Shown piece by piece: positions 13,013 to 53,831 of a stretch of 64,000 nucleotides of DNA (positions within the stretch are counted from its first letter, which is position 1; each line of letters starts with the position of its first letter). Below the pieces are notes generated by a model that saw only the letters and a list, made by a program, of their open reading frames with translations, did not search any database and had not been told where the DNA came from. The DNA is from Clostridioides sp. Its GTDB lineage: Bacteria; Bacillota; Clostridia; Peptostreptococcales; Peptostreptococcaceae. Position numbers and translations under genes: made by a program. The stretch lies in NCBI GenBank assembly GCA_031261505.1, contig JAISJN010000003.1, positions 6,141 to 70,140 on the forward strand, written 5' to 3'.

Positions 13013-13206
13013 CTCATCAACGCATTTGTTGTTTGTATTCAATATTTTTCTGTATTAAATATATAATATATCATTCTGATAATAATGTCAAGAAGTATTT
13101 TTAAAATTTTCTGATACAGTTTTAGAGCTATCCACTGTCAGGCAATCAGTATTTGAACGCTACCTCGAATTATCAAATCGCAGCTCATTGAAACATATCT
13201 GATTGT

Positions 13207-19902: not shown

Positions 19903-19975
19903 CGGGCATAAATCTCAAGTTAAATGGTTATTCAACTAAAATAAGAAAGATGCCCCCACTTCGAGACATCTTCCT
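19903..19975 (+). repeat. repeat fragment (right-end/left-end junction plus hairpin)
   Basis: GGGCATAAATCTCAAGTTAAATGGTTATTCAAC ... AAGATGCCCCCACTTCGAGACATCTT. Confidence 0.45.
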
Positions 19976-29783: not shown

Positions 29784-30500
29784 TTACAAAATGTTCTTGT
29801 AGTTTTTCATAAAATCCTTCAACGCCTGTGTCAATACTACTGGTTTGCTGAATTTAGAGTTGCTACATAATCTCTCAAACTCACTCCATGTATTGCTGTC
29901 GACCCTTATAGTAGTCGATTTCACATCTTTTAATTTTACGGTTTCAACTATTATATCATCTCTTTCGTCATTTGTCTGAATTTCTGCAGATATTTTATCC
30001 TTGACCTGTAGATACCAGTCGTACACCTCGCAAAGTTTATCCATGTCCTCTGGAGTTATATTTATCTTTTTAGTGGTTTTTACAACTTTTCTCTTTTGTT
30101 TAGGCACGTCTTTCTTCACTTTCTCTTTTGTTTCGTTTTTATTTTTCTTACCTGATTTTTCTTTGATATTTTTTGTTTTTCTTGCATTGTCCATGCTCTT
30201 GGTATCTGATTCTAGCTTTCCGATAGCTTCTATAAAGTTCAACTGCTCTGTACCCGATTCATTTACTTTTTTTTCTTTACCTGCTTTATTTCCTTTAGGT
30301 AATTTGCTTTCCTGACTTTCTTTATTTATGTCATTTTCTTCATTTACATATTCGCCCTTAACGGACTTATACCCATTTTTATTTAAAAAGGCTCTTAAAG
30401 TTCCTGGTTTTATATCCATATTATTTGATATTTCATTAAATGACAATTCACTTTTTTGAAGCTCTAAAAATTTATTTAATCTCTCATTATTATCTAGCAA
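29784..30500 (-). CDS. Lys/Glu-rich DNA-binding-type protein (N-terminal HTH-like, C-terminal ribbon-helix-helix-like)
   Basis: FNEISNNMDIKPGTLRAFLNKNGY (HTH-like), then a K/E-rich linker of about 100 aa. The C-terminus TTIRVDSNTWSEFERLC...KPVVLTQALKDFM is RHH-like. I chose the TTG at 30500, after GGGGGG. The track ORF extends into repeat E1. Confidence 0.55.
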   Translation of the reverse strand: MLDNNERLNKFLELQKSELSFNEISNNMDIKPGTLRAFLNKNGYKSVKGEYVNEENDINKESQESKLPKGNKAGKEKKVNESGTEQLNFIEAIGKLESDTKSMDNARKTKNIKEKSGKKNKNETKEKVKKDVPKQKRKVVKTTKKINITPEDMDKLCEVYDWYLQVKDKISAEIQTNDERDDIIVETVKLKDVKSTTIRVDSNTWSEFERLCSNSKFSKPVVLTQALKDFMKNYKNIL

Positions 30501-30521
30501 TAAAATCCCCCCATGTATTCT

Positions 30522-30626
30522 ATCTTTTCTCAAGTTAAATCTTGATTGCGTGTTGGGGATTTGCCCCAACTGAAATGAGAATTATGTCCGCCATCTGTAA
30601 TGATGGCGGATATCTTTCTCAAGTTA
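30522..30626 (+). repeat. intergenic repeat, tandem unit E1
   Basis: ATCTTTTCTCAAGTTAAATCTTGATTGCGTGTTGGGGATTTGCCCCAACTGAAATGAGAATTATGTCCGCCATCTGTAATGATGGCGGATATCTTTCTCAAGTTA. Confidence 0.88.
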
Positions 30627-30723
30627 AATGTTGATTCAACGCTTTCTGCTGGGGATTTTCCCAGCTGAAATGAGAATTATGTCTGCCATCTGTAATGATG
30701 GCGGATATCTTTCTCAAGTTATA
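30612..30723 (+). repeat. intergenic repeat, tandem unit E2 (shares the TCTCAAGTTA junction with E1)
   Basis: ATATCTTTCTCAAGTTAAATGTTGATTCAACGCTTTCTGCTGGGGATTTTCCCAGCTGAAATGAGAATTATGTCTGCCATCTGTAATGATGGCGGATATCTTTCTCAAGTTATA. Confidence 0.9.
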
Positions 30724-30762
30724 TTGTACCACAGAATTCGACTAATTTCCTAAATATTGCTG

Positions 30763-30850
30763 TTTAAATGCTGATTCAATGTTTTTAGCATGATATTTTA
30801 ACACATTTGAATGAGAATTATGCTGACTCTAGAGATCTCTGGCGATTTTT
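30763..30850 (+). repeat. intergenic repeat, decayed third unit E3
   Basis: TGTTTAAATGCTGATTCAATGTTTTTAGCATGATATTTTAACACATTTGAATGAGAATTATGCTGACTCTAGAGATCTCTGGCGA. Confidence 0.55.
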
Positions 30851-30920
30851 TTAAAGTAGCACCTTAAGATGTGGTATAATTTTTGTATAAGAATTAATTT
30901 GTGAGGTTATGGAGGTTATT

Positions 30921-31349
30921 ATGAAAGAAAACGATGTAGTAGAATTATTTTCTCAAGGATTTGACTGTGGTCAGGTTGTTTTAGGAGAGATGTCTTCTAA
31001 GCTTGAAATCGATATTGAGACGGCGAGAAGAATGTCAGCCTGTTTTGGAGCTGGTATGTTCGACGGAGATACCTGTGGTGCAATAACTGCAGCCTATATG
31101 GCTCTAGGTTTAAAATACGGACATGACAAGCCCTTTGATGGAGATTCAAAGGTTGAAAACATGATGAAACTTACACAGTTTAAAGATGAGTTTTTACATA
31201 ATCACAATTCATTGATATGCAGAGATTTGCTTGGATACGATATAACAAATCCAGACGATTCAGAAAAAATAAGTGAAAAAAATCTTCTTATGACATTTTG
31301 TCCAAAGTTGGTAGTAGAGGTAATCGAGATTCTAGACAATATTTTATAA
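30921..31349 (+). CDS. C_GCAxxG_C_C family redox protein (second paralogue)
   Basis: GFDCGQVV...GDTCGAITAA...LICRDL...FCPKL. ATG 30921 follows GGAGG. The stop TAA lies inside the end of repeat F. Confidence 0.85.
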   Translation: MKENDVVELFSQGFDCGQVVLGEMSSKLEIDIETARRMSACFGAGMFDGDTCGAITAAYMALGLKYGHDKPFDGDSKVENMMKLTQFKDEFLHNHNSLICRDLLGYDITNPDDSEKISEKNLLMTFCPKLVVEVIEILDNIL

Positions 31350-31437
31350 CTTGAGATAAATGCCATCAACCTCTGAGGGTGGCTGGCATTTATCTCATTT
31401 CAGCTGGGGTAAAATCCACCACCTCTATAGGTGGTAA
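31345..31437 (-). repeat. intergenic repeat, inverted orientation (F)
   Basis: TATAACTTGAGATAAATGCCATCAACCTCTGAGGGTGGCTGGCATTTATCTCATTTCAGCTGGGGTAAAATCCACC plus an extra CCACCTCTATAGGTGG hairpin. Confidence 0.75.
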
Positions 31438-31572
31438 TGGGTTAATCCTTAAAATAAGAACAGCCCCTATCAAATATGATTGGAGGCTGTTCTTTAGTTA
31501 AGGATTATTTTATACTGAGAGGTTTTACCCCCGAATAAGCAAAAACATGACTGCTATAGGCGATTACGACAG

Positions 31573-32583
31573 TTAAACTAAGGCGCCGCCACAGCTTGAG
31601 CCAGCTCCTGCTGTACAGGCATAGCAGTGGTTACCTGTTTCTATCCTTCTTTTTTCTATATTTACTCCTCTTAGTTCAGATATGTTTGTAATCGCTCTGC
31701 CAAGAGATTTTTCTTCTATTTCGATACAGTCGCCTTCCTTGCATTCAACCATATTTACACCCATTCCTATAGCCTGGTTGAAATCACAATCGTATAAACT
31801 TCCGTCATATGCAACTGAAATCTGGTCTCTACACATCATATTTGCAACGGCATCTGGATTGTAGTTTTCATATAGGTCGGCTTCGTAGTTTTCTAGTTCT
31901 CCCACTGTCTTTAAGTCATATTTAAACCTTCCGATTGGAACATTTGTTATAGTGAATAAATTATTAAATTCTATCCCCCAGTCCTCGCGAAGCCTTAGTC
32001 TGTAATCCTCTTCTAAACCAGCCTGTTCTGGAGGTAGGAATCCACCACCTGGATTATATACTAGGTTTAGCACCAAGCCTTCTTCAACACCGTAGCCTAC
32101 CTCGTTTAATTTTTTGAGCATTTTAATCGCCACCTCGTAGGTTCCATCTCCCCTCTGGTAGTTGACGTTTTCTTCGAGGTAACAAGGCATTGAGCCTACT
32201 AATTCCACCTTGTGTTTAAGGTATAAATCTATGTACTGACTGTATTTAGGATCGTCTAAGATCACCATATTAGTCCTAACTATTATCTTATCTGCTATTT
32301 TACTGCCTTCTTCTATTAGATACTCTAGATTTGGATTCATTTCTGGAGCACCACCAGTGATGTCCAAGACCTTAAATCCATTCTCTTTAAATACCTGTAG
32401 ACAGTCTTTGATAGTATTTAGGTCCATAGTCTCATTCCTATTTGGACCGGCCTCTACATGGCAATGTCTACAGGCTAGGTTACAGACCTTACCTATGTTT
32501 ACCTGCATGGTTGATAGTTCTTCATTTGTAAATAATAATTTCTTCCTCTCAACCCTGTCTTCGAAATTAAGTTGCTTATTCAT
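31573..32583 (-). CDS. radical SAM / Cys-rich-domain enzyme of the ArsS (TIGR04167) type
   Basis: CNLACRHC (CxxxCxxC), GGAPEMNP, SLYDCDFNQ, and C-terminal HCYACTAGAGSSCGG. Confidence 0.85.
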   Translation of the reverse strand: MNKQLNFEDRVERKKLLFTNEELSTMQVNIGKVCNLACRHCHVEAGPNRNETMDLNTIKDCLQVFKENGFKVLDITGGAPEMNPNLEYLIEEGSKIADKIIVRTNMVILDDPKYSQYIDLYLKHKVELVGSMPCYLEENVNYQRGDGTYEVAIKMLKKLNEVGYGVEEGLVLNLVYNPGGGFLPPEQAGLEEDYRLRLREDWGIEFNNLFTITNVPIGRFKYDLKTVGELENYEADLYENYNPDAVANMMCRDQISVAYDGSLYDCDFNQAIGMGVNMVECKEGDCIEIEEKSLGRAITNISELRGVNIEKRRIETGNHCYACTAGAGSSCGGALV

Positions 32584-32608
32584 ATATATCTCCCCATTTC
32601 TCTATTTA

Positions 32609-32732
32609 TTTTAAATGATTGCTCAACAAGTTAAATGGTGATTCAACGCTTTCAGTGGGAGATTTGACTCCCACTGAAATGAGATTTATGCCCGCCACCT
32701 GTAGAGGTGGGGGACATTTATCTCAAGTTATA
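32609..32732 (+). repeat. intergenic repeat, full copy (G), inside the rSAM operon
   Basis: It has a partial extra left end (TTAAATGATTGCTCAAC) followed by a complete unit that matches 98 of 100 nt of copy A at 2766-2865. Confidence 0.92.
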
Positions 32733-32753
32733 TCACATCAATCTTATATTTCG

Positions 32754-33521
32754 TTATTTTCGATTGTATAAGTCTGCTATCTTTTCGGCCTTGACTCCTC
32801 TTCTGTACATGCCCTGTAATTTCTGCATCTTGTACATTGTTTTGACGACACCACAGTCTAAAAATCTCCTGCTAGAGGTCGTTATAACTGTTTTCGTCTG
32901 ACCTATCTTAAAGTTTTTTTTGATATCCATGGAAAGCTGGTAGTCTTCCATAAGTGGAATCTCACGGTATCCTCCGAGTCTGTAAAATAGTTCTTTTTTT
33001 AAGAATATACCTTGGTCTCCAAAGGCTATATTCCTGAGCCTTACCCTTAGATTTGACATGAATCCACAACATCTCATTAGAAATTTATCGCTATCAAATT
33101 TAATTTTAAAGCATCCCGCATTATATCCTATAGAAACAACCCTACAAATATCTTCTATTGCGCTACTCGGTGGAAGGCTATCTGCGTGCAAGAAAAACAG
33201 TATCTCTCCACTGCTGGCATTTGCACCAGCGTTCATCTGCACAGCTCTCCCTCTATCTGAAGAAATTACCTTAATCTCAGGTTGGACTCTCACTTTATCT
33301 GACATATTACAGAACTTATCATTTAAAGCGCTCTTTTTGTTTGAAATCACCTTTGAATTAAAATCTTCTGCCGACTTTAAAAGTCTTTCGAGCGTGGCGT
33401 CCCTACTGCCACCGTCGACAAATATAACTTCAAAATCGCCTCTGAGTCCAGTTGTCGTAGCAAACATCTCTGAGACTCTATCTTCTTCATTTAATACTGG
33501 TACGACTATAGATACCTTCAT
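32754..33521 (-). CDS. family-2 glycosyltransferase (TIGR04283-like, rSAM-associated)
   Basis: MKVSIVVPVLNEE...FVDGGSRD...FLHADS, the GT-A signature; 255 aa. Confidence 0.82.
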   Translation of the reverse strand: MKVSIVVPVLNEEDRVSEMFATTTGLRGDFEVIFVDGGSRDATLERLLKSAEDFNSKVISNKKSALNDKFCNMSDKVRVQPEIKVISSDRGRAVQMNAGANASSGEILFFLHADSLPPSSAIEDICRVVSIGYNAGCFKIKFDSDKFLMRCCGFMSNLRVRLRNIAFGDQGIFLKKELFYRLGGYREIPLMEDYQLSMDIKKNFKIGQTKTVITTSSRRFLDCGVVKTMYKMQKLQGMYRRGVKAEKIADLYNRK

Positions 33522-34309
33522 TTTTTATCTCCAAAATCACCTGGCGATACCTTTTTAGCTAAGATTACAGACACAACCGCCAATAGTACGAGTAAGACTA
33601 TTGACAGGATGAACGCAGGGTCCTTGACATCTACAGCCTTGTCCCCTATGTTTAAAAACACTAGCGTACCTGGAAGTATACCAATTATAGTTGCGCTCAA
33701 GTAGCTTCCAAAACCGATGCTTGTAAGTCCAGCCCCGTAGTTTATCACGTTATAAGGCATGAATGGAATCAGCCTTAAGATAAATATTATCATAAATCCA
33801 CGTTTACCGTCTGCCTTGTCAAACTGCTCCATCCATTTTTCAGGGAGTTTGTCCGCAAGAAAACCCTTGACCATGTCCTTGGCGAGAAACTTGGCCATAA
33901 AGAACATGAGTATGCAGTTTATTCCAGCTCCTATCACCGTGTATAACGTGCCAGCCCAAAGTCCAAATGATAGACCTGCAGCTAGAGCCAGTACTGGAAC
34001 TGGGAAAAACGCCATTGGCAAAAGCGTAAATAACAATATATATACGAGCGGTCCTACTCTACCATAGCCACTTATATAAGCCCTTATATTTTCTGCGTCG
34101 ACACCTCTGAAATATTTAAAATAAATAAATACAAGTACGCCTACAACCGCGATTGTCAACAGCGTCTTATGCTTTTTACCGGCCTTTGCACCATTTTCAT
34201 CATCAGACTGATCCTCCTTGTGATTCCTGTTTGTCTCAGTGTCTTCATTTACTTTACCTAACTTGTTTAGATTCTCGACCTTATTTTCTTCTTCCATATT
34301 ATTTTTCAC
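33518..34309 (-). CDS. TVP38/TMEM64 (DedA-superfamily) membrane protein with an acidic N-terminal tail
   Basis: LLPMAFFPVPVLALAAGLSFGLWAGTLYTVIGAGIN...LRLIPFMPYNVINYGAGLT. Confidence 0.85.
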   Translation of the reverse strand: MKNNMEEENKVENLNKLGKVNEDTETNRNHKEDQSDDENGAKAGKKHKTLLTIAVVGVLVFIYFKYFRGVDAENIRAYISGYGRVGPLVYILLFTLLPMAFFPVPVLALAAGLSFGLWAGTLYTVIGAGINCILMFFMAKFLAKDMVKGFLADKLPEKWMEQFDKADGKRGFMIIFILRLIPFMPYNVINYGAGLTSIGFGSYLSATIIGILPGTLVFLNIGDKAVDVKDPAFILSIVLLVLLAVVSVILAKKVSPGDFGDKK

Positions 34310-35006
34310 TGCCTTTACTTGTGTTATTCTTCTTCTCGCTGAATATCTTCTTTAATAAGAACACCAGTACAGATACCGCAAATAGAATCAACAGACCCAT
34401 CACAAATTTTCTCGCACCACCTGTTAGCATTCCTCCTACGTAAGAGTAAATAATAGTCGCAGGCAGCTGTCCTAATCCTGTAGCAATTATAAATGAGCTA
34501 AAAGACATAGACGTAAGCCCTGCCGCGTAACTTACTATATCAAATGATACAAATGGAAGCAGTCTGCATATCAGTATAGTGTGTTTTCCGTATTTTTCAA
34601 AAAATACATCCACGCTTTCTATAGCCGTCTTCGTAGTTAATTTTTCTACTATATCTCGTCCGAGTACATTTGCTATATAGAAACAAATCATAGCGCCAAC
34701 CATCGAACTCGTCCAAGATAAAATCGCACCCTGCCACCATCCAAACACGGCGGCGTTTGCAAATGTTATTAGAAATGCTGGGATTGGAGCTGCTAACGAT
34801 TGGAATATCATAAGCATGAACGACACTACCCAAGACCAGATTCCAAATGATCTTATGTACTCTACTACTCCTTCTACATCTACGCTAGACAGTATTACAG
34901 TTATCTTATTTATCTGTGCCTTAACCGATGGTACGAAAAAGTATATCAAAATTGCTGCAATTAAGACCGCCAACGTAGACAATCTTACTACTTTCTTATT
35001 TTTCAT
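34299..35006 (-). CDS. TVP38/TMEM64 (DedA-superfamily) membrane protein
   Basis: QSLAAPIPAFLITFANAAVFGWWQGAILSW...CRLLPFVSFDIVSYAAGLT. Confidence 0.85.
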   Translation of the reverse strand: MKNKKVVRLSTLAVLIAAILIYFFVPSVKAQINKITVILSSVDVEGVVEYIRSFGIWSWVVSFMLMIFQSLAAPIPAFLITFANAAVFGWWQGAILSWTSSMVGAMICFYIANVLGRDIVEKLTTKTAIESVDVFFEKYGKHTILICRLLPFVSFDIVSYAAGLTSMSFSSFIIATGLGQLPATIIYSYVGGMLTGGARKFVMGLLILFAVSVLVFLLKKIFSEKKNNTSKGSEK

Positions 35007-35063
35007 AATTTATGTCCCCTCTTTAATTTAGTAGCGTACATTCTGTACTAATTTAGTTTTATT

Positions 35064-36197
35064 TTAAAAGAAATCCCTTTCGATTGAGATTAAGAAATCT
35101 TCTTCTAAATACGATTTGATTTTTCTATATGTATCTTCATTTCTGATGAGTTTATCTGGGCTTTGGTACTCAACCCATGCCATAGCGCTCCAAGTGATCC
35201 CCCTCAAGCAGGTAAATGTAATATACGTATTCAATTTTTCATATATGCCATCTATGTCAAACCTTCCATTCACTTCTTTTATGTACATCCTTACAAACTC
35301 GTCTATATCTTCCTTAGAAAGCCTGATATCCGTCTTCCAAAGTGTTGTTGTAGGCGCTAGAAAATGTCCTAAATCCTGCTCTACTTCACCAATGAGCGGC
35401 TTCTCCCAGTCTATTATATAATTATTCTGTCCCTCTCCGTTTATCAGGAAATTACCTGAATTGAGTTCTGTGTTTATTATATGTAAGCCTTCCCTCTGTT
35501 CTACCTTGTTGATATCTCTATCCTCGGCGTATCTATCCAATGTATCTACATACAAATCATCGCTGTCAAACTTATCTATATCAACCGTATCGCTATCTAT
35601 GATAGCTCTACATTTATCGCAACTGCGTTTTTTCACAATAAGTCTAGCCTTGTCTAAAAGCCTGCTTATTATCTCCTTGCTCGTTTCATCTGCCGAGTTT
35701 GAGTTTAAGTATACCGAAGACATATCTTCACATTCTTCAAGCATAGCCTTAAGTGGATCTTGAGGAGATATAAGGATATGCTCTTTGGGAATTTCCGTGC
35801 TGTGTATATCGGCTAGGCAGGCAGCTGCAATATGCAAATCCTTTGTGTAATCCAGCGCTACTCCTGGAAGGTATTCCATCACCAAAACGCCGTAGTCCAA
35901 CTTCTCACGTGAGTCGTCTAGGTATATAGGCATAGGAGTCCTGCTAGAATTTTTAAGTATCTCGAGTGCATTGTACTCGTATTCTATCTGATTTTCAAGA
36001 TGCATCTGGCTTGCAGTATTCAACCTCAAGACGTATTTTTCCTCCCCAGAAACTCCAAATACATAATTGACATTGTATTCACCCTGTCCTAGGAGTTGCA
36101 CGTATACCTCAGATTCCCCATCTATTCCAACAGCCTTTTTAAAAGACTTATCATCTATATATTTTTTTATTTCGTCAATTTTCATATTAACCTGCAC
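35064..36197 (-). CDS. aminoglycoside-phosphotransferase / choline-kinase-fold protein with an atypical catalytic loop
   Basis: VMEYLPG hinge and IIDWEKP...DLGHF (the DxE and downstream motifs). The catalytic loop reads IINTELNSGNFLI where HxDxxxxN is expected. Confidence 0.78.
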   Translation of the reverse strand: MQVNMKIDEIKKYIDDKSFKKAVGIDGESEVYVQLLGQGEYNVNYVFGVSGEEKYVLRLNTASQMHLENQIEYEYNALEILKNSSRTPMPIYLDDSREKLDYGVLVMEYLPGVALDYTKDLHIAAACLADIHSTEIPKEHILISPQDPLKAMLEECEDMSSVYLNSNSADETSKEIISRLLDKARLIVKKRSCDKCRAIIDSDTVDIDKFDSDDLYVDTLDRYAEDRDINKVEQREGLHIINTELNSGNFLINGEGQNNYIIDWEKPLIGEVEQDLGHFLAPTTTLWKTDIRLSKEDIDEFVRMYIKEVNGRFDIDGIYEKLNTYITFTCLRGITWSAMAWVEYQSPDKLIRNEDTYRKIKSYLEEDFLISIERDFF

Positions 36198-36858
36198 TCT
36201 CTACCCTTCCAATCTCAACTAGATATTCAGTCGTGTTCTTGCATCTGTATTCTCCGCTTTTTATTCCTTCGCAAAGCTTTTCCAAATCTTCAGGTTCGTC
36301 TATATCTAGACAGCAACTTGATATGCCATAGCTGAGATTTAATCTATTTAAGTTTTCTAATGTATTTTCTATAACTTTTTCATGCCCGTATCCCTCTATA
36401 TCGAAAACTTCAAAATTTGCCCTCTTCATTCCAATAATGAAATAACCACCGTCAAAAGTAGGTTTTAAATATACTTCCTTGGTTTTCAATACCTCAAACG
36501 CCTCTTCAATATCTTCAAGCTTGAGTGTAGGTACATCTGTACCCATCAGCACGCATGAATCGTAACCCATTGCAAGAGATTCCTGTATAGCAGTCCCCAT
36601 CTTCTTTCCTAGGTCGCCTGAAACTTGTGGTATGAATTTTTCTTGATCTGGCATGATATTTTTTAGAATTTCTACCCCGTCATCTGGAGTGTAAAACAAG
36701 ATTATATCCCTTTTACTTCTGCTACACGTCTCGTATATGTCCTTGATAAACGCCTCGTGAATTTTAGCACATTGTCCTTTTGTCAAACACGATTCCAACC
36801 TGGTCTTAGTCATACCTGGTATTGGAACTCGCGATAAAATTATTATTACCTCTCTCAA
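36187..36858 (-). CDS. DUF2064 / TIGR04282-like (CofC/MobA-fold) transferase, rSAM-associated
   Basis: IIILSRVPIPGMTKTRL...GTDVP...DGGY. Probable TTG start at 36858, 5 nt after GGGAGGA. The track ORF begins at 36882. Confidence 0.78.
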   Translation of the reverse strand: MREVIIILSRVPIPGMTKTRLESCLTKGQCAKIHEAFIKDIYETCSRSKRDIILFYTPDDGVEILKNIMPDQEKFIPQVSGDLGKKMGTAIQESLAMGYDSCVLMGTDVPTLKLEDIEEAFEVLKTKEVYLKPTFDGGYFIIGMKRANFEVFDIEGYGHEKVIENTLENLNRLNLSYGISSCCLDIDEPEDLEKLCEGIKSGEYRCKNTTEYLVEIGRVESAG

Positions 36859-37112
36859 ATAAATCCTCCCTGTGAACTTCAATAATTATTCCTATAAAAT
36901 CTCAAAAAATCTGCATTAAGATCAACGTCGAGATTAATGTCCCTATCTTTACTATACGAAAAATACGATGTGATGTCAATTTATGTGATAATTAAAATCA
37001 AACTATGTATTTTTACATAAATATAGGACCTCTCTTATCGCGATGATAATGATCGGCCCTAATTACTTGTTTGTTTATTATCTATCTTCATGTTAGCCAC
37101 TGAACTGAAAAA

Positions 37113-37832
37113 CTATGCATTAGTCCATTCGACAGAATTGACCTGCCTTAGCTTTTCATTCCTCTTTAAGTCTATACTTTTGATATTTATTCTGTCGCAG
37201 TTTAGATACTCAAGATCTAGATTTTGAGATACGTCCAATACTGCTATATCGTTGAACTCACAGTTTAAATGACGCAGTTTGGTATTTTGTCTTAAATTAA
37301 TTCGCTTTAGATTGTTCATAACACAATCGAGGTAAATAAGCTCTTTGTTTTGTGTTAAATCCAACTCTACCAACTGATTGAATCCACATTTCAACTTAGC
37401 TAATTTAGTTAAATTTCTGAGATCTATTCTAGTAAAATCATTCAAATCCATATATAGGTAAACGATTTTCACATTATTGCTGAGATCTATCTCTTTTAAC
37501 GTATTACAGGCAATTTCGAGGTGATATATTTCTCTATTATTTGTCAAGTCCAGCTGTCTTAGCTTGTTTGTAGAACAGTATAGTCCTCTGAGTTTTTTAT
37601 TATTACTTACGTCTAATTCTGTCAAAGCGTTCACACTGCAGTTCAATTGCTCTAATTCTGTCAGATACTCAATTCCTTTCAAGCTTTTTATCTTTCTGTT
37701 GGAAATATCTAACTCTCTGATACTATTAAACATATCTGGAGTTACCACATCATTGAGTCCGACCCTTACTAACTTCTGAATTCTCTTTCGGAAAATCTCA
37801 TCCGGAAATTCGACTTTGAATATTTTTTTCAT
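37113..37832 (-). CDS. leucine-rich repeat protein, no signal peptide
   Basis: About nine 22-residue LxxLxCxxNxLxxLDLxxN repeats (LTELDVSNNKKLRGLYCSTNKLRQLDLTNN...). The N-terminus is hydrophilic. Confidence 0.85.
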   Translation of the reverse strand: MKKIFKVEFPDEIFRKRIQKLVRVGLNDVVTPDMFNSIRELDISNRKIKSLKGIEYLTELEQLNCSVNALTELDVSNNKKLRGLYCSTNKLRQLDLTNNREIYHLEIACNTLKEIDLSNNVKIVYLYMDLNDFTRIDLRNLTKLAKLKCGFNQLVELDLTQNKELIYLDCVMNNLKRINLRQNTKLRHLNCEFNDIAVLDVSQNLDLEYLNCDRINIKSIDLKRNEKLRQVNSVEWTNA

Positions 37833-38115
37833 GCTGATTCCCCCTTACATATTCAGGTCCTTTATTCGTTTTTTCCACCTTAAATAAAATGTAATTTTCA
37901 TTCTTTTTCAAATTGATTATATTTTTATTATATACTTTTTGGGGACTATATTCAAGCCTAAATCACCTATATTGTATACGGAATATCCATTATTTTCTTT
38001 TGAAAATTATAATTTTTCTGTTTTTTACAAGTCGCCGAATCTTGAATATATAAAAACTAAAAACACTGAATCCCACACTCGTATATACTATGAGTGTAAA
38101 ATTCAGTTTTTTAAT

Positions 38116-38200
38116 TGGTGCGGATGAAGGGAGTCGAACCCCCACGCCGTAGGCGCTAGATCCTAAGTCTAGTGCGTCTGCCAATTCCGCCACATCCGCA
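38116..38200 (-). tRNA. tRNA-Leu (anticodon UAG), CCA encoded
   Basis: Minus strand GCGGATGTGGCGGAATTGGCAGACGCACTAGACTTAGGATCTAGCGCCTACGGCGTGGGGGTTCGACTCCCTTCATCCGCACCA. It has a 7-bp acceptor stem, anticodon loop CTTAGGA, a long variable arm and GTTCGA in the T loop. Confidence 0.93.
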
Positions 38201-38370
38201 TGTCTTGGCTACCTTCTTATTATACAACCTTCCTCAAAAAAAATCAAGATGATTGAGCATAAATTTAAATTTTTCGACTAAATTCTGTTAATAAACAAAA
38301 TAACCCCATAGCGCAGACATTATTGTCCCCATGCTATAGGGTCTATTTTAAATCTAAAAATTATTATTTG

Positions 38371-38462
38371 ATTAAATAATGATTGTGTTGTAGAGGATTT
38401 TGCCTCCACCGAGGTGAGAATTATCCCCGCACCTATATAGGCAGGCGACATCTTTTCCAATC
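38371..38462 (+). repeat. intergenic repeat, diverged copy (H)
   Basis: GATTAAATAATGATTGTGTTGTAGAGGATTTTGCCTCCACCGAGGTGAGAATTATCCCCGCACCTATATAGGCAGGCGACATCTTTTCCAA. Confidence 0.6.
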
Positions 38463-39469
38463 TATGAATTGAGCCATTCGGGATGAGCACAGCTATCGTC
38501 TATGCCGTACGGATATGCTGCAGTAGTGAAATAAGAAACTGGTTTGTTTGTATCTCCGTCGATTACTGTAGTATAACCTCCATCGTAATTTGTAACGTAA
38601 ATTTGATTTGTAACTGCATTTACAGCTAGTATACCCGGTAGTTTTCCTACTGGAATGGTTGCTATTACTTTAAACGATCTCCAATCTATTACAGATACAT
38701 CATTTGATTTGCCATTTGCTACATAAACCAGACCGTTATTTGGATTTACGACTATTCCAGCTGGTCCATCACCCACTGGCACTGTGGCTATTACGGTATA
38801 TGTCTTACCATCTATTACACTTACGTTATTATCGTGGAAGTTTGTAACGTAGATTATATTCCTATCCTGGTCTGAATCGACCTTTGAAGGTAACTCACCA
38901 ACAGGAACGGTTGCAACAACTTGATTTGTCTTACCATCTATAACTGATACATTATCAGTAAGATTGTTTGGCACGTAGATCATATCTGTACTATACTCTA
39001 CCTCAAGTCCGTAAGGCTGTGATCCAACCGGTATTGTAGCGACTATCTGATTTGTTCTTTCATCTATTACCATTGTAGCATTTAACCCAGTCGCTATTAC
39101 ATACACCATCTGAGTGTACGGATTTACCTCTATTTCAGTCGGATTTACAGTACCTTTTGGCAGCTCCATGCCAATAGGTATAGTAGTTACAGAATAATTA
39201 TTCTTTTCATCTATAACACTTATATAATTAGATATTGTACTTCCAACGTACATCACCTGAGTTACGGGATCATAGGCTACACCCCTCGGTGCTTCTCCGA
39301 CTGGAATAGTTTTTATCACTTGCAGAGTTTTTGCATCTACTACACTTAGACTATTGTCAAAGTAATTTGATACGTATATAAGACATTTTTTAGAATCTGG
39401 ACACTCACATTGATAACAATAACATGGACTATGACGGCCACATTTGACACATACTTTACAGGTTTTCAT
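38462..39469 (-). CDS. YVTN/YncE-type beta-propeller repeat protein with an N-terminal Cys-rich cluster
   Basis: About seven 42-residue repeats (VSVIDxxTxxVxxTIPVGxxPxGxxxxP). The N-terminus is MKTCKVCVKCGRHSPCYCYQCECPDSKKC with no signal peptide. Confidence 0.85.
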   Translation of the reverse strand: MKTCKVCVKCGRHSPCYCYQCECPDSKKCLIYVSNYFDNSLSVVDAKTLQVIKTIPVGEAPRGVAYDPVTQVMYVGSTISNYISVIDEKNNYSVTTIPIGMELPKGTVNPTEIEVNPYTQMVYVIATGLNATMVIDERTNQIVATIPVGSQPYGLEVEYSTDMIYVPNNLTDNVSVIDGKTNQVVATVPVGELPSKVDSDQDRNIIYVTNFHDNNVSVIDGKTYTVIATVPVGDGPAGIVVNPNNGLVYVANGKSNDVSVIDWRSFKVIATIPVGKLPGILAVNAVTNQIYVTNYDGGYTTVIDGDTNKPVSYFTTAAYPYGIDDSCAHPEWLNS

Positions 39470-39962: not shown

Positions 39963-41714
39963 TTAATTCTCTCCGACTGCATTTTTACATTCAACTTCAT
40001 ATGCTAACACATCCGCTTCTTCTATCCTCTTTCCAAGTATCTGTAATCCAATAAATATTGCCAGTATCGCAACTGGTAGCACGATGTATATTGGAACTCC
40101 TAATCCTGCAGGAAGGTATCCAAACACTATAGAGATGACAGCAGTAAAGACCGCATAAGGCATCTGTGTGTTCACGTGGTCGAGATGCTCGCAACTTGCA
40201 CCCATTGATGAAAGTATCGTCGTATCCGAAATAGGTGAACAATGGTCTCCAAATATCGCCCCTGTAAGAACAGCACTAGTACTTGTAACTATGAATCCCA
40301 TGTCAGGGTTCATAGAATGCGCAAGTGGTATCGCAAGAGGCATCAATATACCCATTGTTCCGTATGAAGTACCAGTAGCGAACGATATAATCGATCCCAA
40401 TATAAATATGAGTGTTGGCAACAAGAAGTTTGGCATATTTCCTGAAAGCAATTGAATCAAGAATTTAGCTGTCCCAAGCTCTTTGATGACTGAGCTCAAC
40501 GACCAAGCGAGTATTAGTATAACACCTGTTATAACCAAGGTCTTCATACCATCTACCCATACGTCTATTGCCTCTGTTATCGTAAATATCTTCTTACCTA
40601 CTGCCATTACTATTCCAACTACACTTGCTAGCAATGCAGACTGGAATAATGCTATAGATGCATCGGACGCACTAAATGCCTGTTTTATAGCTTCAAATGA
40701 CAAAGGTGCATTCTTGAATAATTGGATTAATCCTTTGTCGTCTCCAGCCATTATTCCTGAATAACCGCTAGAGTAGAATGATATTAGAGCTGCTACTATC
40801 AAAGTACCTATTGGAATAATTGCATTCCACACACTTAGTTTAACGCCTTCTTTCGGCTCTAAATCGTCCTGAATTTTAACTTCTTCCTGTCTAGGATTTA
40901 CTGTAGTCTGTCTTGCTCTTATCTCTGCCTTTCTCATAGGCCCAAAATCCTTCATGAGAATAGCTGAGAAGAATATAAACGCTAGTATGAGTATATTGTA
41001 GAACCTAAAAGGTATCGTCTGAAGGAATACTCCAAATGCATCTGCCTTTACTCCAATACTTGCAAAAGCGTTGTTTATAAGTCCTACCTCAAGTCCTATC
41101 CAAGTCGATATAATAGCTAGCCCTGCAACTGGTGCTGCTGTCGAGTCTATTATGAAAGATAGTTTCTCTCTAGATATCTTCATCTTATCTGTTACTGGTC
41201 TCATTATAGGTCCTACTATAAGTGAGTTTGCGTAATCGTCAAAGAATACTAAAAGTCCAAGCAACAATGTTATGAGCTGAGTACCTTTTTTAGTCTTCGC
41301 CTTGTCCGCAAGCACCTCTGCTATGGCCTTTGCTCCACCCATCTTCGCAACCAGGTGTATTACTCCTCCTATCGCTAGTACTTGTAATATAATTCCTGCG
41401 TTCCACGGATCTGCTAGCGAGTTTACTGATCTTGTCACTAAATCTAAAAATGAATTAATTAATGCTTGGAATACATTGTTTCCTGTAGTATTAATTATAA
41501 ATCCTCCTGCCAGTATTCCTAGCATCAACGACACTACGACGTTCTTAGTTATGAATGCAAGCGCTATAGCCACTATTGGCGGAATCAACGTCAACACTCC
41601 AAATTTAGCTGCATTAATAGCTGCTGCGTCTGCCTCCTCGGCAAAACCCACGACGGTGAAAAGACTAAGTATCATCATTGTCGTAAGAATAGTATAAATC
41701 CTTCTATTTCTCAT
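39963..41714 (-). CDS. NhaC-family Na+/H+ antiporter-type transporter (probable lysine-related transporter, given its leader)
   Basis: 583-aa polytopic protein with NhaC-type segments (FDDYANSLIVGPIMRP, GAIFGDHCSPISDTT). It sits behind a lysine riboswitch. Confidence 0.88.
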   Translation of the reverse strand: MRNRRIYTILTTMMILSLFTVVGFAEEADAAAINAAKFGVLTLIPPIVAIALAFITKNVVVSLMLGILAGGFIINTTGNNVFQALINSFLDLVTRSVNSLADPWNAGIILQVLAIGGVIHLVAKMGGAKAIAEVLADKAKTKKGTQLITLLLGLLVFFDDYANSLIVGPIMRPVTDKMKISREKLSFIIDSTAAPVAGLAIISTWIGLEVGLINNAFASIGVKADAFGVFLQTIPFRFYNILILAFIFFSAILMKDFGPMRKAEIRARQTTVNPRQEEVKIQDDLEPKEGVKLSVWNAIIPIGTLIVAALISFYSSGYSGIMAGDDKGLIQLFKNAPLSFEAIKQAFSASDASIALFQSALLASVVGIVMAVGKKIFTITEAIDVWVDGMKTLVITGVILILAWSLSSVIKELGTAKFLIQLLSGNMPNFLLPTLIFILGSIISFATGTSYGTMGILMPLAIPLAHSMNPDMGFIVTSTSAVLTGAIFGDHCSPISDTTILSSMGASCEHLDHVNTQMPYAVFTAVISIVFGYLPAGLGVPIYIVLPVAILAIFIGLQILGKRIEEADVLAYEVECKNAVGEN

Positions 41715-41770
41715 TTTAACCCCTCCCTAATTTGTGAATATCCAAGCTAAGCACGATTGTATAAATACCG

Positions 41771-42035
41771 AAAAAAAAGCCTCAGGCTCACACCCAAGGC
41801 TTTTTTATATCCAATAAACCGGTATACTGAGATTCAGTAGACCAATAAATTAATTTTTTCCTCAAATGATAGCTCATCACAACTACTATGTGACAGTTAT
41901 ACATATATTCTATGTATACCCAGCCTCGAAACCTCAAAGTTTTGATTCCTGACTTCGGCAATATTTCCTTTCACGACGAATCTCTGCACTTAACTCCTCG
42001 TCGCTACTGATAAACACTGCGCCTCTACCTCATAT
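41771..42035 (-). promoter_or_regulatory. lysine (L-box) riboswitch with terminator
   Basis: The minus strand reads GGUAGAGGCGCAGUGUUUAUCAGUAGCGACGAGGAG...GAAAGGAAAUAUUGCCGAAGUCAGG...AACUGUCAC. The terminator AAAAAAGCCUUGGGUGUGAGCCUGAGGCUUUUUUUU follows. Confidence 0.88.
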
Positions 42036-42109: not shown

Positions 42110-43009
42110 TTATCTTTTAAAATATTCCTCTAGGATACTTGATAAAATTTCCTCTGTTCCGTGTATTCCAAAGTTCTCGCTTATACGTGCCTTTTTCTTC
42201 AAGACCTCGTCCATATTTTCTATGTCGCCATGCCTTAAAATATACGAATTTGAGCCTGTTCCAAGCATACCAAAATCCATTATCGAATCGCCTATCGCAT
42301 TATGCTCCGATATACCGATTTTATCCGATACAAATTCTATAGCTTTTTCTTTCGTAAGTTTTTCCGGAGTAAAATACACCTTCCTCCCGTTTACGTAGTA
42401 CTTCCAACCAAGAGTTGGCAAGATTTTTATAAATCCCGACATACGCTGAATATCAAACTCATCTGGGTCTACTACCAAGTAGAAAAACTTATCCTCTGCT
42501 ATTCTAAACTTTTTGATTCCTATATCACATCCATGGTTTCGTTTAGCTATCCCCTTGATTTTACTAGTTTTGAAGTTTCCTTTAGCTACAGAGTTCTTTT
42601 GCGTTTCACCTATGGTGAAGTTCAACTTCTTAAACTCCTCTACTACATTTTCAATCGACTCAGATTCCTTTAGATTTTTTCTGACTATTTCCTTCCACTC
42701 TTGTGATTCCTCTCCGTTTTCTAGCACAATACCTCCGTTTGTCGTTATTGCCCAAGGGAAATTTATTCCGAACCTTGAAAAATCAATCCTCTTAAACTGC
42801 TCGACTGTCCTCGTAGTAGTAGGTACAAAATAACCTAACTTTCCAATTTGCCTTATATAGTCGATTGTAATTTTTGAAATAAAAGAGATCTCTTTGCCCT
42901 CGTACATCTCTATATTTAAATAGTTCTCATCTACAATGCCATCTTTCCCCTCCGCTATAAACCTTTTTGAATAAATTACGCTTCTGTCTAAATCTGAGAA
43001 AACAAGCAC
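42110..43009 (-). CDS. HAD-superfamily phosphatase (Ter-associated biosynthetic module)
   Basis: Motif I FSDLDRS, motif II PTTTRT, motif IV GDSIMD; 299 aa. Confidence 0.72.
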   Translation of the reverse strand: MLVFSDLDRSVIYSKRFIAEGKDGIVDENYLNIEMYEGKEISFISKITIDYIRQIGKLGYFVPTTTRTVEQFKRIDFSRFGINFPWAITTNGGIVLENGEESQEWKEIVRKNLKESESIENVVEEFKKLNFTIGETQKNSVAKGNFKTSKIKGIAKRNHGCDIGIKKFRIAEDKFFYLVVDPDEFDIQRMSGFIKILPTLGWKYYVNGRKVYFTPEKLTKEKAIEFVSDKIGISEHNAIGDSIMDFGMLGTGSNSYILRHGDIENMDEVLKKKARISENFGIHGTEEILSSILEEYFKR

Positions 43010-43013
43010 GTAT

Positions 43014-44120: not shown

Positions 44121-44210
44121 TGTTTTATCTCGTTTCCGACTTGATTTTTAATTATCTTATCTGAACCTGTGATTTAAATATCTATCTGAGTTCATTCTCG
44201 ATTTCAATCC

Positions 44211-46659: not shown

Positions 46660-46681
46660 TTTCCACCCCTATGTATTCTAA

Positions 46682-46711
46682 AATGGGCAAGTTACGCAAC
46701 CTGCCCATTTT
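46682..46711 (-). terminator. terminator-like hairpin between telA and the biosynthetic module
   Basis: AATGGGCAGG-TTGCGTAA-CTTGCCCATT on the minus strand, flanked by A and U runs. It lies only about 22 nt upstream of the HpcH-like start codon. Confidence 0.6.
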
Positions 46712-46836
46712 TATATATTCATTTTCATATTTATTAGCTGACACATTTTTAAATGGCTATCGCATATTAAGGATACACCTAGACTAAAATGCATATCTAT
46801 CTTATCCACATAGCAAATTCATAAATATCCATCGAC

Positions 46837-47973: not shown

Positions 47974-47987
47974 GATTTATCCTCCCC

Positions 47988-48081
47988 TTAGATATTGATT
48001 GTGTGGTGTGGAATTTTTTCCACTCAAATGAGATTTATGCCCGCCACCTATAGAGGTGGGTGACATTTGTCTCAAGTTATA
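47988..48081 (+). repeat. intergenic repeat (I) between the YceG-like gene and telA
   Basis: TTAGATATTGATTGTGTGGTGTGGAATTTTTTCCACTCAAATGAGATTTATGCCCGCCACCTATAGAGGTGGGTGACATTTGTCTCAAGTTATA. Confidence 0.82.
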
Positions 48082-48086
48082 ATATT

Positions 48087-49682: not shown

Positions 49683-49783
49683 AGATTACAACCTATTTCT
49701 GTTATCTTTGAGGCAAGAACTTATATATTTTATTATATAACTATTTTATTTTTATGTCTTGTATTATTTTAATTTTCTTAATC

Positions 49784-52531: not shown

Positions 52532-52561
52532 TATCCTTCTCTTTTTTTAGTCTTATTTAAA

Positions 52562-53179: not shown

Positions 53180-53196
53180 ACTTTCCCTCCTGACTC

Positions 53197-53775: not shown

Positions 53776-53831
53776 TAGTTCTCCCCCTATCCTTTTTCTG
53801 TATCGCCTTTGTATATGATACTATTTTTATT

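Follow-up and report, generated by a model that had tools for sequence, protein, structure and literature searches.

A close described counterpart of the locus analyzed here is the arsenosugar pathway of Synechocystis, which employs ArsM and the radical SAM enzyme ArsS, and in which ArsS adenosylates DMAs(III) to yield 5'-deoxy-5'-dimethylarsinoyl-adenosine (DDMAA; PMC13598754). No published description of the late steps after DDMAA was found. ArsM-linked ArsS clusters of Bacteroidota, Proteobacteria, and Planctomycetota are typically arranged in the order CMD (TIGR04169), ArsS, rhodanese (NF045521), glycosyltransferase (TIGR04283/04282), purine nucleoside phosphorylase (PNP), and ArsM (NF038099), with or without a TVP38 protein and an FAD oxidoreductase.

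Several other systems offer partial parallels. Methionine/5'-deoxyadenosine salvage proceeds either through the phosphorylase MtnP or through the nucleosidase MtnN followed by MtnK, an APH-fold 5-methylthioribose kinase. Anomeric sugar kinases with the APH fold include MtnK, NahK, and AmgK; in AmgK/MurU and FKP, a kinase is paired with a nucleotidyltransferase, FKP being bifunctional (kinase and NDP-sugar pyrophosphorylase). For the ydjX-ydjY-ydjZ-ynjA-ynjB-ynjC-ynjD-ynjE operon of E. coli, no paper assigning a function was found, the sole annotation being that of ynjE as a molybdopterin synthase sulfurtransferase.

The present locus lies in a 64-kb stretch of Clostridioides sp. DNA, hereafter the window. 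The original prediction described six tightly packed minus-strand genes, and the ORF check bears this out: all six ORFs are on the minus strand, neighboring genes overlap by 11, 11, and 4 nt, one gap measures 57 nt, and 170 nt precede the radical SAM gene. The features are as follows.

36951..36979, minus strand: promoter-like site TTGACA-17-TATAGT upstream of DUF2064, the first gene (consensus scan, 11/12)
36187..36858, minus strand: DUF2064/TIGR04282 protein, CofC-like nucleotidyltransferase fold (profile matches, RBS-supported start)
35064..36197, minus strand: APH/choline-kinase-fold small-molecule kinase, unnamed family (PF01636, AF2 model, Foldseek)
34299..35006, minus strand: YdjZ-type DedA/TVP38 (VTT domain) membrane protein (PF09335, E. 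coli YdjZ identity)
33518..34309, minus strand: YdjX-like DedA/TVP38 (VTT domain) membrane protein (PF09335, YdjX identity)
32754..33521, minus strand: GT2 glycosyltransferase, TIGR04283 family (TIGR04283 score)
32584..32753, no strand: spacer with a dispersed two-hairpin repeat (blastn copies)
31573..32583, minus strand: ArsS-type radical SAM enzyme (TIGR04167, PF04055, PF12345)
30909..31349, plus strand: C_GCAxxG_C_C family Cys-rich protein (TIGR01909), convergent with ArsS

The promoter-like site, a pattern match alone, has the top consensus-scan score of the region. The longest DUF2064 ORF spans 36187-36882; however, the TTG at 36858, the start taken in the original prediction, sits 6 nt after a GGGAGG ribosome-binding site and is the likelier one. 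An alternative ATG at 36185 gives a 373-aa form of the kinase (P0001).

The family assignments of the original prediction were right, since the ArsS, TIGR04282, and TIGR04283 proteins all exceed the NCBIfam cut-offs (402.7 bits against 300, 174.2 against 134, and 236.4 against 182, respectively) and the APH and VTT domains were matched (PF01636, 51 bits, N-lobe only; PF09335, 98 bits for 34299-35006 and 93 bits for 33518-34309). DUF2064 further matches PF09837 (83 bits) and PDB 3cgx (E 1e-25), and it surpasses the Pfam threshold for the CofC guanylyltransferase (PF01983, 35.7 bits, cut-off 22); the N-terminal region of the GT2 protein resembles the polyprenyl-phosphate glycosyltransferases ArnC/GtrB/DPMS. 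The gene set is syntenic in >25 independent Clostridial lineages, so the arrangement is not due to chance, and the locus, with an ArsS-type radical SAM enzyme at its core, represents a genuine gene cluster that is widely conserved in gut-type Clostridia. It is also uncharacterized, as had been proposed: neither a curated family nor a paper covering the kinase or the Clostridial cluster was found.

The radical SAM enzyme belongs to the same equivalog family as Synechocystis ArsS and has in common with it the CX3CX2C motif (CNLACRHC), the DUF3641 domain (PF12345, 168 bits), and a C-terminal Cys motif, here GSSCGG; the motif HCYACTAGAGSSCGG is present, PF04055 is also matched, and there is an insert of ~19 aa. 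Sec-containing TIGR04167 members carry a GxxU Sec motif (PMC13188914), whereas the window enzyme has Cys where the selenoprotein members have Sec. It is 47% identical to the nearest arsM-linked ArsS, within the 43-91% mutual spread of arsM-linked enzymes; kinase-linked and arsM-linked ArsS proteins share 47-55% identity, compared with a median of 54% among the arsM-linked proteins themselves. Of 97 columns conserved in arsM-linked ArsS, 78 are identical in all kinase-linked ArsS, and the anaerobe group shows consistent exchanges at three sites (Q36L, M271A/T, and G322A).

The original prediction held the arsenosugar label to be unsafe and noted that no arsenic genes accompany the cluster. The absence itself is real: no ArsM, PNP, CMD, or rhodanese homologue was detected in the 64-kb window by tblastn or HMM, and the gene at 9779-10138 is, as supposed, of the Spx/MgsR type (TIGR01617, 106 bits, cut-off 75) and not an arsenate reductase. 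About 100 Clostridial loci were examined as well, and none has arsM within 8-10 kb. However, ArsS proteins 72-91% identical to arsM-linked ArsS also lack arsM within 10 kb; the missing gene is weak evidence against arsenic.

Common to the arsM-linked clusters and the window are ArsS, TIGR04282, and TIGR04283, along with Cys-rich redox helpers and a TVP38/DedA protein. They differ in that the window contains a Glu-type APH-fold kinase instead of PNP, a YdjZ orthologue and a YdjX-like protein instead of one generic TVP38 and an FAD reductase, and a C_GCAxxG_C_C protein, with no ArsM, CMD, or rhodanese. An ArsS-centered survey of 80 species loci from many phyla gave CMD in 46, DUF2064 in 41, GT2 in 30, arsenosugar-type ArsM in 28 (NF038099, 567 bits), PNP in 18 (PRK08202, 344 bits), and the kinase in 1; in none of them did the kinase co-occur with PNP or ArsM. 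ArsS clusters of other phyla contain arsM (28/80) and PNP (18/80) and never the kinase, whereas Clostridial clusters contain the kinase, sometimes a nucleoside hydrolase, and never the phosphorylase. The hydrolase, of the IU type, is found in L088-L090 and 5 metagenomic lineages, and L014 displays the order CMD>ArsS>IUNH. Since all kinase loci are Clostridia, the alternation of kinase and PNP is confounded with phylogeny. TVP38-type DedA proteins also belong to the arsM-containing ArsS clusters L028, L045, and L076, and the view that the kinase and DedA genes count against the arsenosugar label is not supported.

The cluster extends beyond the coordinates first given for it. The C_GCAxxG_C_C protein (TIGR01909, 53.1 bits, cut-off 47.4) is 58% identical to an M. 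mangenotii protein in the equivalent position, and most Clostridial loci have its gene beside that of ArsS or of the kinase.

With about 215 clusters at 50% identity, the family of the kinase is compact, and it has no name. The AF2 model of the kinase (pLDDT 87) matches APH(9), ethanolamine/choline kinases, and NahK with a Foldseek probability of 1.0 (TM 0.60 for NahK); sugar kinases have no edge in this comparison, as choline/ethanolamine kinases and APHs score equally well, and no NCBIfam model of MtnK or any sugar kinase is matched. The catalytic loop NTELNSGN had been called unusual. The Asp-to-Glu change is real, Glu244 occupying the catalytic-base position and aligning with the Asp of APH(9), but it is no peculiarity of this protein: NTE(L/V)NxxN is the hallmark of the whole family, and NTE[LV]NxxN together with DWE is kept in about 100 of 104 representatives. 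The pattern of the ATP/Mg site is intact in sequence (R58, E74, N249, and D263), and Glu244, Asn249, Asp263, and many further residues are strictly kept across about 215 clusters, which points to an active site under selection. Relatives of solved structure in the alignment (APH(9)-Ia) show no Glu at the catalytic Asp, and thus a different activity is possible. A lineage-specific disordered insert occupies about aa 195-235.

The kinase directly follows DUF2064/GT2 in 8/8 genome contexts and 18/23 metagenomic lineages; 22 of the best 150 family representatives are 470-660 aa long, and 9/10 long representatives scanned are DUF2064::kinase fusions. DUF2064::GT2 fusions are common across loci, and DUF2064::CCG fusions also occur. 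Conversely, in many kinase clusters ArsS is missing from the surrounding 10 kb and a YnjB-type ABC importer is present instead, and in some lineages (the L119 group) the kinase is apart from DUF2064/GT2.

The VTT protein at 34299-35006 is 55% identical over its full length to E. coli YdjZ (E 1.6e-93), and an orthologue is present in 7/8 distinct Clostridial clusters examined (none shown in L006, L088). Its neighbor, with a hydrophilic N-terminal extension of ~55 aa, is 30% identical to YdjX and 63% to the neighboring M. mangenotii protein. These two genes are all that the window holds of the ydjX-ynjE set; relatives additionally encode YdjY (44%), a YnjB-type binding protein (36%; NF008633, 459 bits), a YnjE-like rhodanese (38%), and a YnjA-like CMD. 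E. coli itself has no ArsS, DUF2064, GT2, or kinase, and the DedA module is, therefore, not pathway-specific. The repeat insertion reported before the radical SAM gene was confirmed as a dispersed ~100-nt repeat (32631-32732) in the 170-nt gap, with blastn copies in the window at 2764-2865 (98%), 48020-48081, 10154-10223, 30569-30724, 31345-31403, and 61064-61090. The repeat spacer sits where relatives encode a 110-aa CMD/AhpD-like protein (TIGR04169), which is directly upstream of ArsS in L001, L005, L006, and L007; CMD precedes ArsS in the 46 species loci mentioned above (51/91 loci counted in all).

We propose, at an even chance, that the locus is a Clostridial variant of an ArsS-centered pathway building 5-deoxy-5-X-ribosides, i.e., arsenosugar-type compounds. 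The ArsS homologue would take the 5'-deoxyadenosyl group from SAM and attach it to a substrate with a trivalent heteroatom, most probably a methylated arsenical (for example, DMAs(III)), to generate 5'-X-5'-deoxyadenosine; adenine may then be removed by a housekeeping MTA/SAH nucleosidase or by the IU-type nucleoside hydrolase of some relatives. The Glu-type kinase, a candidate 5-X-5-deoxyribose 1-kinase, would phosphorylate C1 of the resulting 5-X-ribose, the CofC-like DUF2064 would turn the sugar-1-phosphate into an NDP-sugar, and the GT2 enzyme would pass the 5-X-ribosyl group to an acceptor (glycerol, glycerophosphate, or a lipid). More speculatively, the DedA pair probably serves transmembrane movement of a substrate or lipid-linked product, and the C_GCAxxG_C_C protein probably deals with the heteroatom in its thiol-bound state. 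Adenine removal and phosphorylation would jointly be the job of the single PNP in arsM-linked clusters of other phyla, for which the extra kinase most likely stands in. MtnP alternates in this way with MtnN plus MtnK, where the substrate is likewise a SAM-derived 5'-substituted 5'-deoxyadenosine; however, the window kinase is not a member of the MtnK family, it has Glu for Asp, and its proposed product goes to a nucleotidyltransferase and a glycosyltransferase, not an isomerase. The succession of kinase and nucleotidyltransferase, often fused, recalls AmgK/MurU, NahK, and FKP, except that the nucleotidyltransferase here is CofC-like and not of the GlmU/RmlA type. Because of this sequence from 5'-X-5'-deoxyadenosine through 5-X-ribose, its 1-phosphate, and the NDP-sugar to the riboside, the kinase fits arsenosugar-type chemistry instead of contradicting it, as the original prediction had supposed.

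The identity of X bears on the first alternative, possible but doubtful, in which the same enzymology operates on a different element: the ArsS-like enzyme of anaerobic Clostridia would adenosylate a species of sulfur, selenium, or tellurium that a rhodanese, CMD, or C_GCAxxG_C_C protein delivers, yielding a thio- or seleno-ribosyl glycoconjugate. The arsM-free Clostridial neighborhoods, the consistent residue switches of the anaerobe group, and the Sec-containing members of TIGR04167 itself are in line with it, as are the accessory thiol/persulfide proteins (C_GCAxxG_C_C, CMD/AhpD-like, rhodaneses, and CCG Fe-S disulfide-reductase-like), whose families include selenoproteins, and the extracytoplasmic lipoprotein rhodaneses with the YnjB/YnjE/YdjXYZ-type module, also found in E. 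coli without ArsS. However, As-C bond formation is the only known biochemistry of the ArsS family, arsM-linked clusters contain CMD, rhodanese, and TVP38 proteins just as well, the divergence of ArsS stays within the spread of those enzymes, and arsM adjacency is often lost even between close homologues.

A Kennedy/Lic-type head-group pathway, near the idea of the original prediction, is unlikely. The kinase would phosphorylate a non-sugar alcohol, like choline/ethanolamine kinases, DUF2064 would make an NDP-alcohol like LicC/CofC, and the phosphorylated group, on a membrane lipid or polymer, would be flipped by DedA proteins. The likeness to LicA/LicC/LicD lies in the kinase, nucleotidyltransferase, and transferase logic and the APH/ChoK-fold kinase, but the last of the three is here an ordinary GT2 glycosyltransferase in place of a phospho-alcohol transferase, and the context includes a radical SAM adenosylating enzyme, whose product suits a sugar route, and nucleoside-cleaving enzymes, namely the hydrolase recruited by Clostridial clusters and, in the equivalent position of arsM-linked clusters, PNP, which yields ribose-1-phosphate. 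In favor of this reading are the choline and ethanolamine kinases among the top Foldseek matches, the precomputed PF01633 Choline_kinase match of many family members, the fact that CofC activates a phospho-acid and not a sugar, and the implication of DedA proteins in lipid/carrier-lipid translocation (weak UptA match, 46 bits). Least probable is that the membrane module and the ArsS trio are merely co-located, with the kinase-fold protein a catalytically dead scaffold, a notion arising from the missing HxD loop. The gene overlaps, the broad synteny, the DUF2064 fusions, and the strictly conserved active-site residues all oppose it, even though E. coli has the DedA/YnjA-E module alone, the kinase has neither canonical His nor Asp, and some lineages separate it from DUF2064/GT2 or ArsS.

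The kinase is, hence, best interpreted as a sugar-1-kinase that supplies a nucleotidyltransferase and a glycosyltransferase, as arsenosugar-type riboside synthesis needs, and its substitution for the phosphorylase would suggest, in a form open to testing, how the unsolved late steps of arsenosugar-type biosynthesis might run.

The original prediction placed six tightly packed minus-strand open reading frames in this operon, and all six are present as described, with overlaps of 11, 11 and 4 nt and gaps of 57 and 170 nt matching the claimed values. A conserved seventh member, on the plus strand, lies beyond the predicted coordinates.

Features of the operon and its flanks
36979-36951, strong promoter-like site TTGACA-17-TATAGT, a pattern upstream of the operon
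36187-36882, minus strand, DUF2064 protein in its longest form; a TTG start at 36858, which follows a GGGAGG ribosome-binding site, is more plausible
35064-36197, minus strand, APH-fold kinase
34299-35006, minus strand, first VTT/DedA protein (VTT-A)
33518-34309, minus strand, second VTT/DedA protein (VTT-B)
32754-33521, minus strand, GT2 glycosyltransferase
31573-32583, minus strand, radical SAM enzyme ArsS
30909-31349, plus strand, C_GCAxxG_C_C protein (TIGR01909, 53.1 bits against a cut-off of 47.4)

Each of the three signature proteins scores above the NCBIfam cut-off of the family to which it had been assigned: ArsS scores 402.7 bits against TIGR04167 (cut-off 300) and covers positions 3-303 of its 303, the DUF2064 protein scores 174.2 bits against TIGR04282 (cut-off 134), and GT2 scores 236.4 bits against TIGR04283 (cut-off 182). 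Pfam concurs, with DUF2064 and CofC above threshold, APH (N-lobe), two VTT domains, GT2, and Radical_SAM together with DUF3641. The DUF2064 protein is CofC-like (PF01983, 35.7 bits, cut-off 22) and matches PDB 3cgx with an E value of 1e-25. ArsS carries the CNLACRHC motif (CX3CX2C; PF04055, 52 bits) and the PF12345 (DUF3641) domain at 168 bits, and its C-terminal GxxC/U motif reads GSSCGG, with Cys at the Sec position; in the PDB, a sequence search with ArsS found nothing beyond a weak match to the radical SAM core (8wm2, E 7e-4). The C_GCAxxG_C_C protein is 58% identical to the product of the same-position gene in Metaclostridioides mangenotii. A second protein of this family is encoded at 14648-15034 (TIGR01909, 68.7 bits), adjoining the gene for a 1505-aa protein with acyl-CoA dehydratase activase domains (15074-19591). 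Rfam was searched over 30400-38500, at gathering thresholds and at E <= 1, for a riboswitch or leader that would reveal the ligand of the operon, and returned a tRNA only. The tRNA gene at 38119-38199, two T-box leaders (4338-4547 and 12772-13029) and a lysine riboswitch (41862-42035) show no association with the operon.

A dispersed repeat of about 100 nt lies in the 170-nt spacer, and blastn finds at least six further copies of it in the window; the copies lie at 32631-32732, 2764-2865, 10154-10223, 19903-19936, 30569-30724, 31345-31403, 48020-48081 and 61064-61090. The repeat is intergenic and REP/MITE-like, with two GC-containing hairpins, and some copies flank the C_GCAxxG_C_C gene. The copy at 32631-32732 occupies the exact site at which relatives carry a CMD/AhpD-like gene before ArsS. 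The product of that gene (CMD) has 110 aa and belongs to TIGR04169, 'arsenosugar biosynthesis-associated peroxidase-like', for which relatives score 190 against a cut-off of 120. Comparison of the spacer (32584-32753) with the CMD genes of four relatives (L005, 13237-13569; L001, 11729-12061; L006, 8459-8791; L007, 7236-7568) reveals no detectable remnant. A CMD gene masked by an in-frame Sec codon is ruled out, since the gap is just 170 nt and a six-frame HMM search finds nothing there. Lineage-specific insertions or extensions, absent from relatives, are present in the kinase (aa ~195-235 of 35064-36197, predicted to be disordered), in ArsS (aa ~273-295 of 31573-32583, holding two extra cysteines), in GT2, and in the YdjX-like protein VTT-B (aa 1-55 of 33518-34309). 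The operon of the window is a reduced variant, which is without CMD, rhodanese and CCG-domain protein and has insertions in kinase, ArsS and GT2.

The claim that the 64 kb hold no arsenic genes is borne out. With queries from families built on other loci, tblastn and six-frame HMM searches find no ArsM, purine nucleoside phosphorylase (PNP), CMD/AhpD-like protein or rhodanese in the window, and inspection of all of its ORFs yields no ArsB-, Acr3- or ArsR-like candidate. The ArsC-like gene at 9779-10138 is of the Spx type, as had been proposed (TIGR01617 Spx/MgsR, 106 against 75; arsenate reductase model, 42 against 106). A complete Ter-type stress cluster is located 5 kb from the operon (42110-54410), behind the lysine riboswitch and an NhaC gene (39963-42035), and encodes a HAD hydrolase, StiP with PELOTA, PRTase_2 with TRSP, a C-C bond lyase, TelA, a YceG-domain protein, a P-type ATPase and three TerD proteins; its position near a metalloid-related operon may be a coincidence.

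The bilobal fold of the kinase is supported by PF01636 (51 bits, cut-off 23.2) and by an AlphaFold (AF2) model that is confident (pLDDT 87) except in the insert at ~195-235. Foldseek gives a probability of 1.0 against APH(9), EK/ChoK and NahK, and APH(9), ethanolamine/choline kinases, homoserine kinase II and N-acetylhexosamine 1-kinase match about equally, with TM 0.5-0.6 throughout. These matches settle the fold, a generic APH/ChoK/NahK one, but do not discriminate the substrate. In place of the HxDxxxxN Brenner loop with its Asp base, the kinase has NTELNSGN; in a profile-to-PDB alignment, the catalytic Asp of APH(9)-Ia falls on Glu244 and the His on Asn242, while Asn249, the Mg-binding Asp263 (IDWE) and the other nucleotide- and Mg-binding positions are retained. 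The original prediction treated this loop as unusual. The replacements of Asp by Glu and of His by Asn are real, but they are no oddity of this protein, as the loop is an invariant hallmark of its family: I/V-N-T-E-L/V-N-x-x-N and (L/I)(V/I)DWE occur in ~100 of 104 representatives with a parsable region, and alignments of 12 and 54 members show no exception. This family-wide invariance also argues against a decayed pseudo-enzyme.

Detectable homologues of the kinase number 2936, the best named ones belonging to M. mangenotii (56%), Clostridium putrefaciens, C. cylindrosporum, Terrisporobacter, Dorea and Lachnospiraceae. When 1.84 billion representatives were searched with a profile, 215 clusters, defined at 50% identity, passed E <= 1e-30. 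They make up a compact, new family that no curated NCBIfam model covers by name and in which Glu takes the catalytic-base position. The NCBIfam matches of the kinase include no MtnK model, and MtnK is not in the top 50 Foldseek matches; an MtnK-like role would be a matter of analogy, not of family membership.

In all eight genome contexts, the kinase gene adjoins those for DUF2064 and GT2, and most of the eight also have one YdjZ-type and one YdjX-like DedA gene, a C_GCAxxG_C_C gene, and CMD directly before ArsS; a CCG-domain Fe-S protein and lipoprotein rhodaneses are frequent. The gene order of M. mangenotii is exactly that of the window, with CMD replacing the repeat. A kinase-centred metagenome scan returned 80 loci, mostly from the human gut and falling into 23 lineages at 90% identity. 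DUF2064 and/or GT2 immediately precede the kinase in 18 of these lineages, ArsS and CMD lie within 10 kb in eight, and a YnjB-type ABC importer and/or an IU-type nucleoside hydrolase (IUNH) is found in six; neither ArsM nor PNP occurs at any of the 80 loci. Among the best 150 kinase-family representatives, 22 are 470-660 aa long, and nine of ten scanned are DUF2064::kinase fusions, which occur in many representatives (e.g., P0122, P0124, P0125 and P0150). DUF2064::GT2 fusions are common, with examples in Dorea and many gut contigs, and one DUF2064::CCG Fe-S protein fusion was found (L125, 14439-16004). These fusions argue that kinase, DUF2064 and GT2 act consecutively.

IUNH is encoded in the Clostridial clusters L088-L090 and in five metagenomic lineages. 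Kinase clusters take two forms, one with ArsS and CMD and the other with a YnjB-type ABC importer and IUNH but without ArsS within 8-10 kb (loci compared: L088, L089, L090, L142, L147, L166, L167 and L170 versus L092, L094, L096, L103, L122, L141, L146 and L157). Their contents suggest de novo synthesis in the one and import and salvage of the nucleoside in the other. One locus (L014) combines CMD, ArsS and IUNH in this order. In the most abundant gut kinase lineage (L119 and 38 similar human-gut contigs), a lone kinase gene is separated by ~3.5 kb from genes for two rhodaneses and a GT2 of 450 aa, with no DUF2064 or TIGR04283 gene within 10 kb.

The neighbourhood of ArsS was also surveyed by an ArsS-centred scan of species-representative genomes, which gave 80 loci from many phyla and in which ORFs were clustered without bias and then annotated with HMMs.

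Neighbours of ArsS in the 80 species loci
CMD, 46 loci, in which it precedes ArsS (51 of 91 loci in the wider collection)
DUF2064, 41 loci
GT2, 30 loci
Arsenosugar-type ArsM, 28 loci (NF038099, 567 versus 400)
PNP, 18 loci, 11 of them with ArsM (PRK08202, 344 versus 218)
Fatty-acid-hydroxylase-like protein, 11 loci
Small rhodanese, 10 loci (NF045521)
TVP38 protein, 9 loci, 3 of them with ArsM
FAD oxidoreductase, 9 loci

The kinase is present in one of the 80 loci (Dorea) and never co-occurs with PNP or ArsM. ArsM is linked to ArsS neither in the window nor in any Clostridial locus examined, and such linkage is not a strict criterion for ArsS because other phyla show it in 28 of 80 loci only. 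Clusters linked to arsM, too, contain DedA, CMD and rhodanese genes, and the Clostridial form is marked out by the kinase in place of PNP and by the missing arsM.

Both DedA proteins carry the VTT domain (PF09335; 98 bits for VTT-A and 93 for VTT-B). VTT-A (34299-35006) is 55% identical to E. coli YdjZ over its full length (232 aa, E 1.6e-93), whereas the TVP38 proteins of arsM-linked clusters reach ~30% to either E. coli protein; VTT-B is YdjX-like, with ~30% identity to both YdjX and YdjZ. One YdjZ orthologue (53-60% identity where measured) is found in seven of eight distinct Clostridial clusters, and none lies within the fetched flanks of L006 and L088. The accessory gene content of related clusters is that of the E. 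coli ydjXYZ-ynjABCDE operon (L091, NC_000913.3 1833401-1840774), including counterparts of YdjX, YdjY (44%), the YnjB-type binding protein (NF008633, 459 bits), a YnjE-like rhodanese (38%) and a YnjA-like CMD. No functional study of this E. coli operon was found in the literature. Against the UptA flippase model NF052604, the DedA pair scores 46.3 and 27.6 bits, below the cut-off of 250. By analogy with the recurrent pairing of TVP38 proteins with reductases, the pair could import the heteroatom substrate; alternatively, it could translocate a lipid-linked product.

Methionine salvage alternates between MtnP and the pair MtnN and MtnK, and MtnK, NahK and AmgK are established precedents for APH-fold anomeric kinases. 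A parallel alternation in ArsS clusters would set PNP against a nucleosidase with the kinase. From family assignments, synteny, fusions and the mutually exclusive distribution of PNP and kinase, all of which are observed, we infer each catalytic step of a Clostridial pathway to a 5-substituted riboside. PNP, encoded beside glycosyltransferases, would phosphorolyse the ArsS-type nucleoside to adenine and a 5-substituted ribose-1-phosphate, and a nucleosidase followed by an anomeric kinase would yield the same product; in Clostridia, some clusters may have recruited IUNH for the cleavage. The CofC-like DUF2064 protein, often fused to the kinase, would then convert the sugar-1-phosphate to an NDP-sugar, and GT2, a frequent fusion partner of DUF2064, would transfer the sugar from it. 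Synechocystis ArsS adenosylates DMAs(III) to 5'-deoxy-5'-dimethylarsinoyl-adenosine (DDMAA) (PMC13598754). This first committed step is the only one biochemically established, and no published account of riboside formation in arsenosugar synthesis was found. The literature on TIGR04167/04282/04283, DUF2064 and DUF3641 yielded listings and no functional study. The original prediction, which called the 'arsenosugar' label unsafe, is partly supported: that label is not proven in this lineage and the kinase family is new, but the kinase and DedA proteins fit an arsenosugar-type riboside pathway instead of speaking against one.

The cluster might have nothing to do with arsenic: in gut Clostridia, an ArsS-like enzyme would adenosylate sulfur or selenium supplied by rhodanese, CMD or C_GCAxxG_C_C proteins. 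From the 5'-chalcogeno-5'-deoxyadenosine so formed, the Glu-type kinase, DUF2064 and GT2 would lead to an NDP-thio- or NDP-seleno-ribose, and YdjZ/YdjX would move the sugar once it is joined to a membrane acceptor. The accessory proteins are thiol/persulfide proteins whose families are rich in selenoproteins, ArsS of anaerobes shows three consistent switches (Q36L, M271A/T and G322A), and none of ~100 Clostridial loci has arsM nearby. This last point says little, however, because arsM is often missing from the 10 kb around ArsS proteins that share 72-91% identity with arsM-linked ones. Furthermore, the window ArsS retains 78 of the 97 columns conserved in arsM-linked ArsS, and its identity to the nearest arsM-linked protein (47%; 51-55% for Clostridial relatives) compares with a median of 54% (43-91%) among the arsM-linked proteins themselves. 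A sulfur or selenium pathway is rather unlikely, and we regard arsenic as about twice as likely as another heteroatom. Were the non-arsenic reading true, it would provide a first function for the orphan E. coli ydjXYZ-ynjABCDE operon, as a module for uptake and processing that serves the same chemistry.

For the arsenic-type riboside pathway that we favor, the contrast between PNP in arsM-linked clusters and IUNH with the kinase in Clostridia, together with the DUF2064::kinase and DUF2064::GT2 fusions, provides a complete and directly testable route for the late steps of arsenosugar synthesis, with one named gene per step. The Clostridial cluster also places the E. coli orphans YdjZ/YdjX and ynjA-E in a defined biochemical context. 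Since most of the 80 kinase metagenome contigs are labelled human gut and the relatives include Dorea and Lachnospiraceae, the pathway is relevant to the handling of dietary arsenic by the human gut microbiome or, should the substrate be another one, of selenium or sulfur.
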